Source: Planctomycetota bacterium
Lineage (GTDB): Bacteria > Planctomycetota > Planctomycetia > Planctomycetales > Planctomycetaceae
Length of the DNA: 64,000 bases
NCBI GenBank assembly: GCA_043777375.1
Contig: JAYWHX010000009.1
Span: 94,918-158,917, forward strand
Direction: 5' to 3'
In this document: in pieces, positions 11,875 through 58,091 of the stretch
How positions within the stretch are numbered: the stretch's first letter is position 1
Layout: the number at the start of each line of letters is the position of its first letter
Program-made: the position numbers and the translations under genes
The notes under the pieces: generated by a model
Told to the model about the DNA's origin: nothing
Databases searched by the model: none
The model's input: only the letters and a program-made list of their open reading frames with translations

Positions 11875-11935
11875 GAAGGTCGCCAAGGAAGCAAAGGGGT
11901 TCCTCCGACGTTTCTTTGCTTCCTTGGCGACCTTC
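11875..11935. repeat. Perfect 22-bp stem / 17-nt loop palindrome between converging genes
   Basis: gaaggtcgccaaggaagcaaag (11875-11896) is the exact reverse complement of 11914-11935. No U-tract follows on either strand. Confidence 0.8.
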
Positions 11936-19867: not shown

Positions 19868-19903
19868 ACACGCCCTTCGAGGTTTTCGAAGGGCGTGTTT
19901 TTT
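19868..19903 (+). terminator. Intrinsic terminator of the giant surface protein gene
   Basis: A 13-bp stem (acacgcccttcga / tcgaagggcgtgt) with a 5-nt loop, ending in a T6 run. Confidence 0.85.
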
Positions 19904-20585
19904 ATGGGCCAGCCGCAATCCCGTGGAACACTGACAGCTTCGGAGCTACCCAGCAGAGTCTGTGGGGATTGGTGCATCCCCATCGTGATTGACCGAGCGG
20001 AGGGGTTGATGAAAAAAAGATCTGGCCAGCCTGGACTATGTGCTGGAATGTTCAGGCACACGGCTCTCGCTAATAAGGTGGGCACAACACCCCCAGCTGT
20101 CGACTTTTCCCGTCAAGTCCCAATCGCGGGGGTCACAATCGTTGAGCCCGCTGCGCCAGCCAGGGCCGCGTGGCTCAAACCTAGGTTTCCTCAGCAGGAG
20201 AGGTGAGTTGGTCGCCTTATCTCTGAAAAAGACACCGTCTCGCTGATTGAATCGCGACCCTGCCCAGCAGGTCGACTCACGGTCCCAGTGATCGATGTCC
20301 GGCACGCGGCCCTGGCTGGCGCAGCGGGCTTAGGTTGGGAGTTCTCTCCGGTGCCATAATATCTGGCCGCACACTGTCAGAGCCTCCTCACCCGCAGACT
20401 TGACGAATTCGGTAAAGTTGGGGAGTCTGGGAGGAAGAGATCATTCGGAATACGCGAACGGACTTGGAATCCATTTTCGATCATGCATTGCAAATGGCCG
20501 GAGTCGGTCATGGGGAATGATTCTGATGCCGATTCTCTGCCGAAGAGGGTTTCTCCGCTTGGCCACAAATTGATCGCAACACTCC

Positions 20586-21755
20586 ATGGCAGCCAACACA
20601 AATCTCGCCAAGAACGACTCTGCTCCCAAAGCCTCCACTCAAGGTCCATTCACCCTGTGGCTCGGGATGAATGTGTCGACGATGGCGCAGGTGGCTCGTC
20701 TCGGGGCAGAAATGCACCCATCTCGTTGGGCTCGCCTGGCCCTGCTGCCGGGTATGGCGGTTTACAATTCGGTCATGTCTTTTGTCGAAAACGTACGGTT
20801 CGGGAAGAAGCTGCGAGAAACGGAAATCAAGCAGCCACCCATTTTCGTACTGGGTCACTGGAGAAGCGGTTCCACGCTGTTGCACAACCTGATTACCTCG
20901 GACCCGCAGTTCAGTTTCGTCAATCTGTATCAGGCGATGTTTCCGACCCATTGCCTGACAACCGAGTGGTTGGGTTCGAAAATTGCGTCGCCCATGCTGC
21001 CCAAGACTCGTCCGATGGACAATATGGGGATCAGCTTCGATCTGCCGATGGAAGACGAGTTTGCCCTGTGTGTCATGACAGGTTTCTCCCCGTATTTGCT
21101 CCCCATTTTTCAGCACCAGCCCCGGAAAATCGATCGATTCTTCAATGTTGAGAAGGGCCTGAATCCCCAAGAACTTCAGTCCTGGAAAGACGCCCTGACC
21201 CTGCTGATGAAGAAGGTCACTTTGAAGACGGGAAAGCCCGTCGTCTTGAAATCGCCGTCCCACACGTTTCGAACGAAGCTCCTGCTGGAGATGTTCCCAG
21301 ACGCCAAATTTGTGTACATCTATCGAAACCCCTATGCGGTTTTGAAATCGAGCGTCCACTTCCGCAAGACGATCTTCGAAGAAAATGCACTCGGACGAAG
21401 CCAGACGGAAGACATGTCCGATGAGGTACTCAACAGCTATGAAGAGTGCTTCCAGACCTATGAGAGAGATCGACTTCTCGTCCCCAAGGGGAACCTGCAC
21501 GAAGTTCGTTTCGAGAGCCTGGAAGCAGATCCCGTCGGTGAAATGCGGAAGATGTACGAGACTTTGGGCCTAGGTGGGTTTGAAAGATTGCAGACCGCCC
21601 TTGAGCCACAGATGGAGGCGTTGAGGAAGTACAAGAAGAATAAGTTCAACGACGATCCCGAGGTGATGCAGCGGATCTACCAGCGTTTGAAGTTCGCCTT
21701 TGACCGCTACGGATACTCGCCGCCGCATGTGGAGTCCGAGCAGGCAGCGGCTTGA
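20586..21755 (+). CDS. Sulfotransferase family protein
   Basis: PAPS-binding 5'-PSB-like motif FVLGHWRSGSTLLHNLI, and a later RNPYAV segment typical of sulfotransferases. Confidence 0.7.
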   Translation: MAANTNLAKNDSAPKASTQGPFTLWLGMNVSTMAQVARLGAEMHPSRWARLALLPGMAVYNSVMSFVENVRFGKKLRETEIKQPPIFVLGHWRSGSTLLHNLITSDPQFSFVNLYQAMFPTHCLTTEWLGSKIASPMLPKTRPMDNMGISFDLPMEDEFALCVMTGFSPYLLPIFQHQPRKIDRFFNVEKGLNPQELQSWKDALTLLMKKVTLKTGKPVVLKSPSHTFRTKLLLEMFPDAKFVYIYRNPYAVLKSSVHFRKTIFEENALGRSQTEDMSDEVLNSYEECFQTYERDRLLVPKGNLHEVRFESLEADPVGEMRKMYETLGLGGFERLQTALEPQMEALRKYKKNKFNDDPEVMQRIYQRLKFAFDRYGYSPPHVESEQAAA

Positions 21756-32538: not shown

Positions 32539-34755
32539 ATGTTGAATAGAGCTGAAACCTTGGACTCCTCCCTCAACATCGCCGATCGACTTCGCGACTC
32601 CGCCCGGAAATGGCCATGGAGGCGAGCTGTGGTCTGTCCGGTGGGGCGAGATCGTGAAGGCCGGGCGACATACTCCCAGCTGACATTTCAACAGTTGGAC
32701 CAGGAGAGTGACCGCCTCGCGCGCGGACTTGTCGCCCACGGTGTGAAACCCGGTTGCCGTTTGGTGCTGATGGTCCGGCCTTCGCTGGAGTTCATCGCCC
32801 TGACGTTCGCACTGTTCAAGGCCGGAGCCGTAATCGTCTTGATCGACCCAGGGATGGGGCGGACGAACATCTTCAAGTGCCTGGAAGAGGTCGCCCCCGA
32901 GGGGTTCATCGCCATCCCGGCCGTGCATTGGATTCGGACGCTGTCACGAAAGTTCCCCAATACCAAGCTCAATGTCCGCGTCGGTGGACGCTGGGCACCG
33001 GGGTGCGTCGCGACGTACCAGACGCTCCGTGGGATAGGCTTCCAGCCTGTCATTGCTGTGAGCCAGATCGCAACGAACGAGAGCCAAGGTTCCGGTCCCC
33101 TCTCCCCCGCATTCAATATGGCCAACACGAACGACTCCACTGCGGGAGAGAGGACTAGGGTGAGGGGGACCACCGTGCCGCTCACGCCCCCTCACCCCGG
33201 CCCTCTCCCCCCCAGCCACGCCCACCCTGCACTCCACACCGATGGGGGGGGAGAGGGAGCAGAACCGCAGGCAGAACGACAGGCTGGAAGCCTATCCCAC
33301 GAAGAGTTCCCGATCGTCCGCACCCGGCCCACCGACCCCGCAGCTGTGATCTTCACGAGCGGCAGCACTGGTCCACCGAAGGGGGTGCAATACGAACATG
33401 GGATGTTCAACGCCCAGGTCGATCTGCTGCAACGGTTCTATGGCATCGAACCGGGCGAGGTCGACTTGCCCGGCTTCCCGCTATTCGCACTCTTCAACGC
33501 AGCGATGGGAGTGACGACCGTCATCCCGGACATGGACCCGACGAAGCCCGCGAATGTTGACCCGCTGAAGATCATTGAGGCCATCAACGACAACGGGGTC
33601 ACTCAGGCATTCGGGTCGCCCGCTCTCTGGAACCGTGTGGGATCGTACTGTGTCGAGAACGGCATTGAGTTGCCTTCGCTTCGCAGAGCATTGTCGGCGG
33701 GTGGGCCAGTGCCGATCCGCGTGCTGGAGATGATGACCAAGGTCTTGACCGGGACAGTTCCAACGGCGACAGAAGGTGCACCACGGAGGCACGGAGGCAC
33801 GGAGGAAGAGCCGTCAGCGGTCAGCCATCAGCCATCAGCCAGATGTTCTTCAGGTGACCACGTTACCACGGAGCCAGTGGCTAGCGACGTGCCGCTCACG
33901 ATGCCTTCTTCGCACATGGTGGATCTCTATCCCTCCTCCTCCGTGCCTCCGTGCCTCCGTGGTGAAAATCTTCAAGATGTTACCAGGGGGCTGACGCCGC
34001 CCCGCTCGCCGTTGCTTGCCGATCTGCATACGCCATACGGTGCGACCGAGAGCCTACCGGTGGCTTCCATTGGGGCGAGAGAAGTCCTCTCTCGCACAGC
34101 TGCAATGACTCGAAAAGGAGCGGGCACCTGTGTCGGGCGAGCGTTCCCCGGTGTCGACATCCGCATCATCCCGATCACCGAGGGGGCGATTGCTTCGATC
34201 AGCAAAACCCACACGCTCCCCCCTGGCGAGATCGGCGAGATCATCGTCCGCAGTCCCGCAGTGACCCGTGAATATTTCCGCAGGCCGGATCTGGCGGGAA
34301 AGGCAGACAGGAATGTCTGCCCTACTCTCGCGGCCAAGATCCCCGATGGCGAAACGTTCTGGCACCGCATCGGGGATGTCGGTTATCTCGATGACGTGGG
34401 GCTGCTCTGGTTCTGCGGACGGAAGGCTCACATTGTCTCCACCAACGATGGCTCGATGTATTCGGTGTGCTGCGAAGGAGTCTTTGATACGCATCCGCAG
34501 GTCTTCCGATCAGCGTTGGTCGGGATCGGGCCGAAGGGGCAGCAACAACCAGTCCTCGTGGTTGAACTGATGCCTGGCCATGGGATGGAAACAAAGATCG
34601 AAGGAGAGTTGCGACTGCTCGCTCAATCGTCGCCTCTCACCCAGACCATTGAGTCCTTCCAATTCATCGACGCGATGCCCGTCGACACCCGACACAACGT
34701 GAAGATCAACCGCGAGGCACTCGCCGTGTGGGCCAAGGAGCAGCTGAAGCGATGA
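32539..34755 (+). CDS. ANL-superfamily adenylate-forming enzyme (fatty acid CoA ligase family) carrying two in-frame palindromic insertions
   Basis: AMP-binding motifs [12 protein letters not shown] and TPYGATE, plus a C-terminal [21 protein letters not shown]. The 738-aa ORF is intact but holds two non-enzyme-like low-complexity blocks that coincide with DNA palindromes. Confidence 0.8.
33028..33301. mobile_element. ~270-bp nested-palindrome (MITE/REP-like) element inside the ligase ORF
   Basis: 24-nt perfect terminal inverted repeats (33028-33051 / 33278-33301). Inner stems lie at 33158-33168/33187-33197 and 33201-33213/33245-33257. Confidence 0.7.
33779..33964. mobile_element. 186-bp palindromic (MITE/REP-like) element inside the ligase ORF
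   Basis: 28-nt perfect terminal inverted repeats (33779-33806 / 33937-33964), each built from three copies of the 8-mer cacggagg. The length is exactly 62 codons. Confidence 0.7.
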
Positions 34756-34780
34756 GGCTCGACCTCCCTTGGTCCCGGCA

Positions 34781-34995
34781 GGGACATCCGACAGTAGCCC
34801 ACCGATTCATCGGTGGGTTTCGACACGCCTCGCGGATGCAGCCCCGAGAGGGGCGACAGAATTCGACGCCATCGCCAGAAGTGCCTTTCGGTGATCCCCT
34901 CACGAGTCGCGAGTTTCTGTCGTCCCTGAAGGGACTTCTCGCTTCGGCGGCTCTCGCTCCCACCATTGAAACGGTGGGCTACTATCGGGTGTCCC
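34781..34995. repeat. Intergenic palindromic element with two cccacc...ggtggg hairpins
   Basis: The arms gggacatccgacagtagcccaccg and cggtgggctactatcgggtgtccc match at 22 of 24 positions. Inner hairpins lie at 34798-34817 and 34959-34978. Confidence 0.6.
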
Positions 34996-35038
34996 TAGCG
35001 GGACAACGAAAGGGTGATCGCGAGATGAGGAGCCGCTC

Positions 35039-36003: not shown

Positions 36004-36035
36004 TTCGCTACTTCGCTACTTCGCTACTTCGCTAC
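36004..36035. repeat. Tandem repeat, 4 copies of the 8-mer ttcgctac
   Basis: Four exact head-to-tail copies ending 12 nt before the ATG at 36048 and adjacent to the GGAG Shine-Dalgarno. Confidence 0.9.
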
Positions 36036-36047
36036 TGGAGACTTGAG

Positions 36048-48665: not shown

Positions 48666-48854
48666 CACCACGGAGGAAATGAGGCCTTCGGGTTCAGAGG
48701 GTTTTGACAGGATCAACAAGATCAACAGGATGAGATCAACGAAGCGTTTCCTCGGCCAGCATCCGGTAAATCCTCTCCATCCTTTCTCAAAACTCTTCGT
48801 CCTGCGCTGGTGTGAGGGCGATCCCCAATAGTCCTGCTCCGTGTCTCCGTGGTG
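48666..48854. repeat. 189-bp intergenic element with caccacggagg / ctccgtggtg termini
   Basis: The termini are inverted repeats and are shared with the intragenic element at 33779-33964. Internal gatcaac repeats are present. Confidence 0.5.
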
Positions 48855-57925: not shown

Positions 57926-58091
57926 GATTCTATTCTTCCACAGAGAACGGTTGAAGTCGTCGGTGTGGCAGCTTGGGAGCAAGCTGCCGTCATCGGGAGG
58001 GCGAGGCTCCTGCCGAGCCGTGTATGCGAGCAGACATTGTCTTAGACTCGCGGCTCAGCAGGAGCTTCGCCCTCCCGAACTCGACACAGCT

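Follow-up and report, generated by a model that had tools for sequence, protein, structure and literature searches.

An in-frame palindrome in a planctomycete AMP-forming ligase gene, probably one copy of a dispersed hairpin repeat family

The ligase gene and its palindromic insertion

We analyzed a 64,000-nucleotide (nt) stretch of DNA from a Planctomycetota bacterium (GenBank assembly GCA_043777375.1, contig JAYWHX010000009.1, positions 94,918 to 158,917; hereafter, the window). It contains a gene for an adenosine monophosphate (AMP)-forming ligase, into which a 186-nt palindromic DNA element with arms of tandem octamers is inserted and translated. An initial annotation, made from the letters alone, had described this element as the second in-frame palindromic insertion in the gene, located just before the YGATE motif. 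The gene, the insertion, and its parts are listed below.

32539 to 34755, plus strand: host gene, an intact 738-amino-acid AMP-forming ligase (NCBIfam PRK09274, "fatty acid CoA ligase family protein")
33754 to 34017, plus strand: whole insertion, 264 nt, residues 406 to 493, 88 codons replacing 2 (PG/PN) relative to empty-site homologues
33779 to 33810, plus strand: left arm, with (CACGGAGG)x3 at 33782 to 33805 (100% by Tandem Repeats Finder)
33809 to 33841, plus strand: 7-mer run in the loop, AGCCATC x4.7, a second short-unit repeat (Tandem Repeats Finder)
33811 to 33932, plus strand: hairpin loop, 122 nt, which differs among orthologues and holds sub-repeats
33888 to 33900, plus strand: 13-mer CGTGCCGCTCACG, common to the first insertion (33174 to 33186)
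33933 to 33964, plus strand: right arm, with (CCTCCGTG)x3 at 33938 to 33961 (100% by Tandem Repeats Finder)
33987 to 34010, plus strand: tail repeat GGGGCTGACGCCGCCCCGCTCGCC, translated GLTPPRSP, within the insertion and beyond the palindrome

The host protein contains the Pfam AMP-binding domain. It scored 648 bits against PRK09274 (cut-off, 478). The match covered three stretches of the 555-position profile and was, therefore, split at two places. Since the equivalog models for OleC (olefin beta-lactone synthetase) scored 541 and 486 bits, under their cut-offs of 900 and 850, respectively, we call the gene OleC-like and not OleC. The window protein was aligned with 27 homologues, and the core motifs of the ANL superfamily, NVKI among them, were invariant in this alignment. 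The open reading frame (ORF) of 738 stop-free codons and the translation of the element were both as the initial annotation had given them. The gene is not a pseudogene, an outcome that the annotation had named as one that would overturn its reading. In the 150-nt flanks on each side of the insertion, codon positions 1 and 2 were 92–94% identical across orthologues, whereas position 3 was 49–55% identical, which indicates strong purifying selection on the enzyme together with near-saturated synonymous change.

Empty-site homologues, which include distant and several close ones, read LTG-PG/PN-ADLH at this site (DNA, CCGGGG or CCGAAC). Their existence supports the proposal that the segment arose by insertion of palindromic DNA rather than as ordinary protein sequence. 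The insertion consists of 25 nt, the 186-nt palindrome, and a further 53 nt. The element had been described as exactly 62 codons, and 186 nt is indeed the length of the palindrome. However, the palindrome is not codon-aligned (codons begin at 33778 and 33781), and the real insertion is the 264-nt segment.

A find-inverted-repeat scan returned arms of 32 nt (33779 to 33810 and 33933 to 33964) that are 97% complementary and separated by a spacer of 122 nt. The 28-nt perfect reverse-complementary core reported previously lies inside these arms, and the three tandem octamers assigned to each arm were recovered on both sides (x3.0, 100%). The two-unit 16-mer CACGGAGGCACGGAGG has 4 exact occurrences in the window versus 0.14 expected, a number that 0 of 100 shuffles equalled. 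The RNA fold computed for 33770 to 33975 has an energy of -112.2 kcal/mol; dinucleotide shuffles averaged -69.6 kcal/mol (z = -9.95), and none of the 200 was as good. No family matched in an Rfam search, in which the sole generic hairpin match was mir-H1 (35.7 bits versus a gathering score of 97). The minus strand carries a solo arm-like remnant, ..CTCCGTGTCTCCGTGGTG.., at 48836 to 48851. It consists of two units and a GGTG end, shows 2 mismatches to the 16-mer, and lacks a partner nearby.

The initial annotation had left a choice between selection for an open frame and elements that are intrinsically open. Each applies to a different part of the insertion. The repeat (CACGGAGG)n reads HGGTEARR and its complement PPCLRASV, and the arms are stop-free in six of six frames. 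They are unable to stop translation because three octamers make 24 nt, or 8 codons, such that each frame is a cyclic permutation of HGGTEARR or PPCLRASV. The rest of the insertion is open in the frame of the gene only and carries 1–5 stops in each of the other five frames, as expected from selection for an open frame. These results support the description of an in-frame palindromic element that is partly open through its own sequence.

Several shorter repeats lie in the loop and tail. The AGCCATC run also occurs in the loops of the orthologues L145, L147, L149, L150, and L154; elsewhere, it forms a hairpin of its own in L106 (2516 to 2590) and is also found in L080 (2063 to 2096). L145, L146, and L149 have the tail repeat in their orthologous inserts as well. 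The 13-mer that the initial annotation saw in both insertions of the gene is real and is correctly placed at 33888 to 33900, but its copy in the first insertion starts one base later than noted. It is part of a degenerate nested palindrome that is clearer in orthologue L146 (GTGAGCGGCACGGCGCTAGCC.../...GGCTAGCGCCGTGCCGCTCAC).

An alignment-based AlphaFold2 model gave residues 406 to 494 a predicted local distance difference test (pLDDT) score below 50, with one 4-residue helix (471 to 474) as the only secondary structure. In this model, the insert is flanked by a helix (393 to 404) and a strand (497 to 502), and the strand carries the YGATE motif. A PDB sequence search with the full protein returned no match at E <= 1e-20. 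When an insert-free homologue was used as the PDB query, the equivalent position in the solved structure of FadD13 was the loop ..IYAAKN/IEVVQGYALTES, which precedes the strand leading into the YxxTE motif. The insertion site is, on this evidence, a tolerant loop, modeled as unstructured with low confidence. The proteins P0005, P0017, and P0012 carry another palindrome-derived insert in the same loop (..AFRSAKDALH...TALDAPFAERKATL). Since this insert is different, the loop between LTG and the following segment is a repeated landing or retention site of several repeat families.

The dispersed family and the orthologous inserts

The window palindrome belongs to a widely dispersed family: a search of species-representative genomes for exact matches to the 20-mer CACGGAGGCACGGAGGCACG yielded at least 118 stretches, distributed over many phyla. 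The counts that follow refer to the matches listed. The recorded hosts include Planctomycetota (Pirellulales, Phycisphaerae, and Tepidisphaerales), Acidobacteriota, Myxococcota, Gemmatimonadota, Verrucomicrobiota, Lentisphaerota/Kiritimatiellia, Spirochaetota, Bacteroidota, Nitrospirota, and Alphaproteobacteria. Several copies are on megabase contigs, and some metagenome-assembled genomes (MAGs) hold several copies each. A ligase homologue is encoded at none of the 118 loci. An inverted partner (<= 3 mismatches in 20) accompanied 60 of the 132 matches. Since the partner is nearly always downstream, the copies share the polarity 5'-CACGGAGG...CCTCCGTG-3'. The 52 two-armed elements are 62–470 nt long, and their arms nearly always comprise 2–3 full units, many with NAC or TTCAC lead-ins. 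Short copies fold as clean hairpins with a stem of 24–30 bp. One Polyangiales MAG holds at least 8 copies that also share the inner stem layers and vary at the centre.

We judged whether copies were genic with an open-frame test. Approximately one quarter of the two-armed copies (approximately 13/52) lie in some frame that is open for at least 180 nt on both sides, and many such frames are spurious in GC-rich genomes. Judged by this test only, the majority of the copies appear to lie outside genes. The initial annotation had suggested that the family might be enriched inside ORFs and have lengths that are multiples of three, and neither expectation was borne out: lengths left remainders of 0, 1, and 2 in 16, 16, and 20 of the 52 elements, respectively. 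Three in-frame copies were confirmed as genic by Pfam. They lie in the gene of an Eco57I/MmeI-type methylase with DUF7008 in Polyangiaceae and, in Planctomycetota, in those of a GH2 glycosidase and an aldehyde:ferredoxin oxidoreductase; these genes read the arms in different frames (HHGGTEARR..., EGTEARRH..., and TTEARRHG...).

None of the papers searched contains the 16-mer, HGGTEARR, or PPCLRASV. A phmmer search of the 66-amino-acid insert peptide against 1.84 billion representatives gave 0 matches at E <= 0.001, the query being too short and too variable, and a word-indexed protein search with the same peptide gave no candidate, an uninformative result. Among 2.9 million viral contigs, there were 6 matches; therefore, a phage vector is not suggested. 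A BLAST search of the arm against plasmids found an octamer array of the variable number tandem repeat (VNTR) type (GACGCGGA / GGCACGGA / GACACGCA) in a Burkholderia stagnalis replicon and one match in Thiodictyon, which are not family hairpins. The Burkholderia array (L162; NZ_CP156686.1, approximately 2487.1 to 2487.4 kb) is long and head-to-tail, with a unit that shifts through GACGCGGA, GGCACGGA, GACACGCA, and GACACGGA. It holds the same octamer in another phase, as a tandem VNTR rather than a hairpin.

Other element classes were also considered and rejected. An intrinsic terminator does not fit, because a flanking T or A run accompanies only 5 of 47 copies and none is present at the window copy. 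Some copies have the form AAC...GTT, which recalls integron attC sites; however, the R and L boxes and cassette arrays that we take to mark such sites were not seen, and the window copy has CAC/GTG. An intein, an intron, or translational bypassing also appears excluded from the sequence, since the element is too small, lacks conserved blocks, is open in frame, and has unbiased loop content.

We then compared the DNA of eleven close homologues, obtained via exact-protein look-ups; ten carry an insert at the site and one (P0004) is empty. A protein-guided metagenome scan yielded five close relatives only. The filled alleles are orthologous: all are at the same codon, have a common start ([ST]V.) and end (.L), and share the outer flanks. 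Their lengths range between 51 and 375 nt and are all multiples of 3. Both arms are present in all of the ten inserts except that of P0006 (L154), which retains the right arm only; the P0011-type alleles L120 and L121 keep the left arm only.

The arms are conserved as DNA. Two 30-nt arm windows were 92–94% identical overall and 95% identical at third positions across orthologues, versus a gene-wide third-position identity of 0.45–0.72. The annotation had proposed that protein-level conservation with synonymous drift would refute a DNA element; the opposite was observed, because the arms keep their third positions (0.95), and the protein encoded by the loop is not conserved and is inverted in one orthologue. 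Since the arms exceed the synonymous sites, and even the catalytic-core codons, of an essential-looking enzyme in conservation, a sequence-specific force must act on an insert that would otherwise be taken for junk.

In a neighbour-joining tree of ungapped columns, filled and empty alleles were interleaved, and sister pairs included P0013 (filled) with P0004 (empty) and P0009 (filled) with P0018 (empty). In the empty alleles, the ancestral PG/PN codons are retained. L145 and L150 shared 97% identity in the arms and 88% in the loop, but only 39% in the pre-flank, and the third-position identity of their genes was 0.54. This contrast and the patchy distribution of filled and empty alleles fit the exchange or replacement of an arm-bounded unit better than simple vertical decay, without proving it.

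The loops change in length, content, and orientation. Those of the orthologues are 53–275 nt long, and one loop subfamily, which includes the window copy, opens with an AGCCATC-type 7-mer run. The 110-nt loop of P0014 (L151) is the gapless reverse complement of the loops of P0008 (L148) and P0015 (L152): identity was 85 and 79%, respectively, after reverse complementation versus 19 and 28% in the forward direction. Therefore, two close relatives translate opposite DNA strands at the same point of the protein. The flipped orientation is open in frame in the subclade of L151, P0008, and P0015. In a flip test, the window copy gained 2 stops; 4 of the 10 orthologues remained open versus 2.7 expected by chance, and three of these four share ancestry.

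Origin and maintenance of the insertion

We consider it likely that the palindrome is translated as a passenger and represents a family of hairpin repeats that is dispersed and non-autonomous. Such a family would operate like repetitive extragenic palindromic (REP) elements and Rickettsia palindromic elements (RPEs). Its architecture may be written as a 5' arm, ..(T)TCAC-CACGGAGG-CACGGAGG-CACGGAG(G/A), a variable loop of approximately 10–400 nt, and a complementary 3' arm. An ancestor of the planctomycete lineage would have gained a copy in the surface loop between the helix and the YGATE-bearing beta-strand of the PRK09274-type ligase. Three conditions would let the copy be translated as a passenger: the arms are stop-free in six frames, the site is a tolerant loop that AlphaFold2 models as unstructured with low confidence, and purifying selection purges frameshift and stop variants. 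The enzyme presumably remains active with the insert. Since the loop was flipped or replaced between the arms without harm to the gene, the peptide appears to be irrelevant, and protein surface loops can take up such DNA; what persists would be the DNA hairpin. The loop drifts, takes up nested repeats, undergoes half-deletion, and can flip by recombination between the arms, with the arms remaining near-constant. Their constancy may reflect recurrent conversion or replacement of the arm-bounded unit, with the copies across the genome as donors; alternatively, the arm sequence itself would be under direct selection.

A number of results weigh against this reading. The window holds one hairpin copy and, apart from it, the solo remnant at 48836 to 48851 (minus strand). 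Regarding target-site duplications, identical flanks of 3–8 nt were found at 0 of 47 elements, and 2-nt matches at 6 of 47 versus 4 in the control. No protein family recurs within 2 kb of the copies at the 118 listed loci, the largest cluster comprising 3 loci. Since mobility machinery, target-site duplications, and a recurrent neighbouring gene were all not found, transposition is an assumption of this reading. The observation that inserts are always in frame is partly an ascertainment effect, because the filled alleles were found via predicted intact proteins. For gene conversion, arms of 28–32 nt are at the lower limit of the length that homologous recombination normally uses. Moreover, the constancy of the arms fits selection at the host level equally well.

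The latter possibility would make the (CACGGAGG)3 / (CCTCCGTG)3 stem a cis-element under purifying selection for a role in mRNA or DNA. Possible roles are the slowing or pausing of translation between one half of the N-terminal domain and the other, the protection of mRNA, and the binding of a conserved factor. Each arm has three GGAGG (Shine-Dalgarno-like) or three CCUCC (anti-Shine-Dalgarno-like) motifs, and the CACGGAGG unit fits what we take to be the CsrA/RsmE consensus, CANGGANG. The identity of the arms persists at saturated synonymous divergence, the unit, its number, and its polarity are alike across phyla, and the hairpin is very stable. Furthermore, neutral homogenization or concerted evolution inside a single element would not fix a sequence between lineages. 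However, close relatives thrive without the insert (P0004, P0010, and P0018-22) or with half of it (P0011 and P0006), P0005, P0017, and P0012 have other repeat families at the same protein site, and no Rfam family matched. The arms of the unrelated family represented by the first insertion of the gene are equally invariant, being identical in four orthologues and in an unrelated oxidoreductase gene, which points to a general property of repeats rather than a gene-specific role. We regard a host-selected cis-element as unlikely. A bolder and rather unlikely reading is that the (CACGGAGG)3 hairpin would be a cross-phylum, sequence-specific module that is recognized by a conserved RNA- or DNA-binding protein or by the anti-Shine-Dalgarno end of the ribosome and selected even within coding sequences. 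The arms would then serve as recombination handles and the protein loop as a swappable cassette.

Two other explanations assign a role to the loop or its peptide. A programmed intragenic inverton, in which the arms are recombination sites and flipping of the loop toggles two protein variants in the population, would account for the inverted loop of P0014 relative to P0008 and P0015 and for the two open orientations in that subclade, and protein-recoding intragenic invertons are known (bioRxiv 10.1101/2023.03.11.532203). However, flipping the window copy introduces 2 stops, the number of flip-tolerant orthologues is near the chance expectation and three of them are kin, and a single inversion across 10 lineages that diverged deeply is as expected if 30-bp inverted repeats recombine occasionally. 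No recurring neighbouring gene was found near the listed copies, and no invertase was seen beside the gene, though none was sought. A programmed switch is, thus, very improbable. Similarly improbable is that the inserted protein segment has a lineage-specific function, for example as an interaction loop or a disordered linker, and that its palindromic DNA is incidental. The insert is in frame, stop-free, and retained by many orthologues, and in the protein alignment, the peptides at its two ends (PRRHGGTE and SVPPCLRGE) give the appearance of conservation; however, this conservation is at the nucleotide level, as indicated by the third positions (0.95). The middle shows no protein conservation, varies between 53 and 275 nt, and in L151 is translated from the other strand. 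In addition, other genes read the arms in other frames, most copies are probably not read at all, and AlphaFold2 models the segment as unstructured with low confidence.

An assembly artefact or a decaying pseudogene is scarcely credible. The window was assembled from a metagenome, metagenome contigs in ENA and NCBI encode the identical protein, and chimeric reads can produce palindromes. Nevertheless, the same insert occurs at the same site in at least 10 independent assemblies from different samples, and family copies are present on megabase-scale contigs and in records not labelled as MAGs (Aquisphaera insulae and Endozoicomonas). The ORF is intact and bears the signature of strong purifying selection, which argues against decay.

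The dispersed hairpin family that we favour as the source of the insert resembles several known systems. RPEs (Ogata et al. 2000) are multi-copy palindromes of approximately 100–200 bp, some of which lie in frame in unrelated genes at fold-compatible sites, and nearly half of those in R. conorii are within ORFs, according to two sources (PMC10969869, PMC3733652). The present family likewise consists of short palindromes, with several copies per genome in some MAGs; some copies are in frame in unrelated genes with known or predicted function, and the peptide is a passenger. In-frame insertion at fold-tolerated positions, as in RPEs, was found in the PRK09274 ligase, the Eco57I-type methylase, the GH2 hydrolase, and the aldehyde oxidoreductase. 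In contrast to RPEs, the hosts are Planctomycetota and many other phyla rather than Rickettsia, the sequence appears to differ, the arms consist of three tandem octamers open in six frames, and the loop is hypervariable and invertible. A small minority of the copies are genic by the open-frame test versus nearly half in R. conorii. Since the host is a planctomycete, we treat the family as an analogue of RPEs and not as a member, a distinction drawn from host and description and not from a comparison with RPE consensus sequences. On this basis, the family is distinct from RPEs. It was found neither in Rfam nor in the literature searched and is apparently undescribed.

REP elements and bacterial interspersed mosaic elements (BIMEs), including intragenic REPs tagged with GTAG or CGTC, occur in Planctomycetes and other deep-branching phyla (PMC3733652). 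They share with the present family a dispersed, mostly extragenic distribution of non-coding stem-loops, which are sometimes intragenic and often nested or clustered. However, the stem ends of the present family are ..TTCACCACGG / CCGTGGTGAA.. and have no GTAG or CGTC tag, a 24- to 32-bp octamer stem with a long variable loop replaces the 20- to 40-nt imperfect palindrome, and no gene of the REP-associated tyrosine transposase (RAYT) type was detected next to the copies, within 2 kb at the 118 listed loci. Bacterial MITEs (transposable elements of the miniature inverted-repeat type) have terminal inverted repeats around a short non-coding core, and in-frame fusions are possible (PMC10969869). 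The present family has terminal inverted repeats, a short non-coding core, and in-frame fusions, and is likewise non-autonomous. It differs from MITEs in that no target-site duplications were found (47 elements), an insertion sequence with matching ends that could be its parent was not identified, and the core is conserved between copies only within single genomes. As in intragenic invertons (bioRxiv 10.1101/2023.03.11.532203), inverted repeats in a coding sequence bracket a segment that is translatable in both orientations (L151 versus L148 and L152). However, the inversion was seen as a difference between species rather than as variation within one population, no invertase has been linked to it, and the flipped window copy gains stops.

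In-frame "selfish" palindromes are best known from Rickettsia; the one described here is in a free-living planctomycete, and its family extends across many phyla. Its interest lies in this breadth and in the constancy of the arms. Such repeats inflate protein lengths, give rise to spurious conserved peptide motifs when proteins are aligned or searched for domains, and probably also interrupt metagenome assemblies.

Other palindromes in the gene and the window

The first in-frame insertion of the ligase gene is at 33022 to 33307 (residues approximately 166–253; pLDDT < 50, with next to no secondary structure in the AlphaFold2 model) and is a nested palindrome. Its outer arms are at 33022 to 33054 and 33275 to 33307, and nested arms are at 33140 to 33168 / 33187 to 33215 and 33098 to 33121 / 33234 to 33257. 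The outer arms, CGTGGGATAGGCTTCCAGCCTGTC and GACAGGCTGGAAGCCTATCCCAC, encode GIGFQPV and RQAGSLSH, respectively, and are 100% identical in the orthologues L145, L150, and L155. In the aldehyde oxidoreductase gene of L091, the arms of this family are identical and a CACGGAGG hairpin is nested within the element.

A third in-frame palindrome, GGCAGACA-GGAA-TGTCTGCC, is at 34302 to 34321 of the ligase gene. It lies within a 10-codon insert at a position where most homologues have E-PT, and pLDDT is below 50 at residues 582 to 592. Two further copies are present at 2645 to 2664 and 2688 to 2707, with 0 expected by chance. The peptide motif ADRNVCPT was seen at the first insertion site in P0003, P0019, and P0021. 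Directly downstream of the gene, an imperfect palindrome spans 34763 to 35013, with 55-nt arms (34763 to 34817 and 34959 to 35013) that are 80% complementary. These arms scored 31.0 and 27.4 bits against Rfam Acido-Lenti-1 (RF01687), under its gathering score of 37 (E = 2e-4 and 2e-3, respectively).

Elsewhere in the window, a palindrome at 57993 to 58078 has 28-nt arms, TCGGGAGGGCGAGGCTCCTGCCGAGCCG and CGGCTCAGCAGGAGCTTCGCCCTCCCGA, that are 93% complementary. Its family is nested in the CACGGAGG hairpin loop of orthologue P0016 (L153), and its peptide, ..GSAGASPSR.., is present at the first insertion site of P0006, P0007, P0012, and P0017. At 20145 to 20330, a perfect 28-nt inverted repeat (AGCCCGCTGCGCCAGCCAGGGCCGCGTG / CACGCGGCCCTGGCTGGCGCAGCGGGCT; spacer, 130 nt) lies mostly between the plus-strand ORFs at 19895 to 20206 and 20483 to 21151, and is probably another hairpin repeat. 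At 36004 to 36036, an octamer, TTCGCTAC, is repeated exactly four times in tandem just upstream of an ATG at approximately 36029 and has no inverted partner in the window; it may be the solo arm of another octamer-arm hairpin. Positions 11875 to 11935 contain a perfect inverted repeat of 22 nt (GAAGGTCGCCAAGGAAGCAAAG / CTTTGCTTCCTTGGCGACCTTC; loop, 17 nt).

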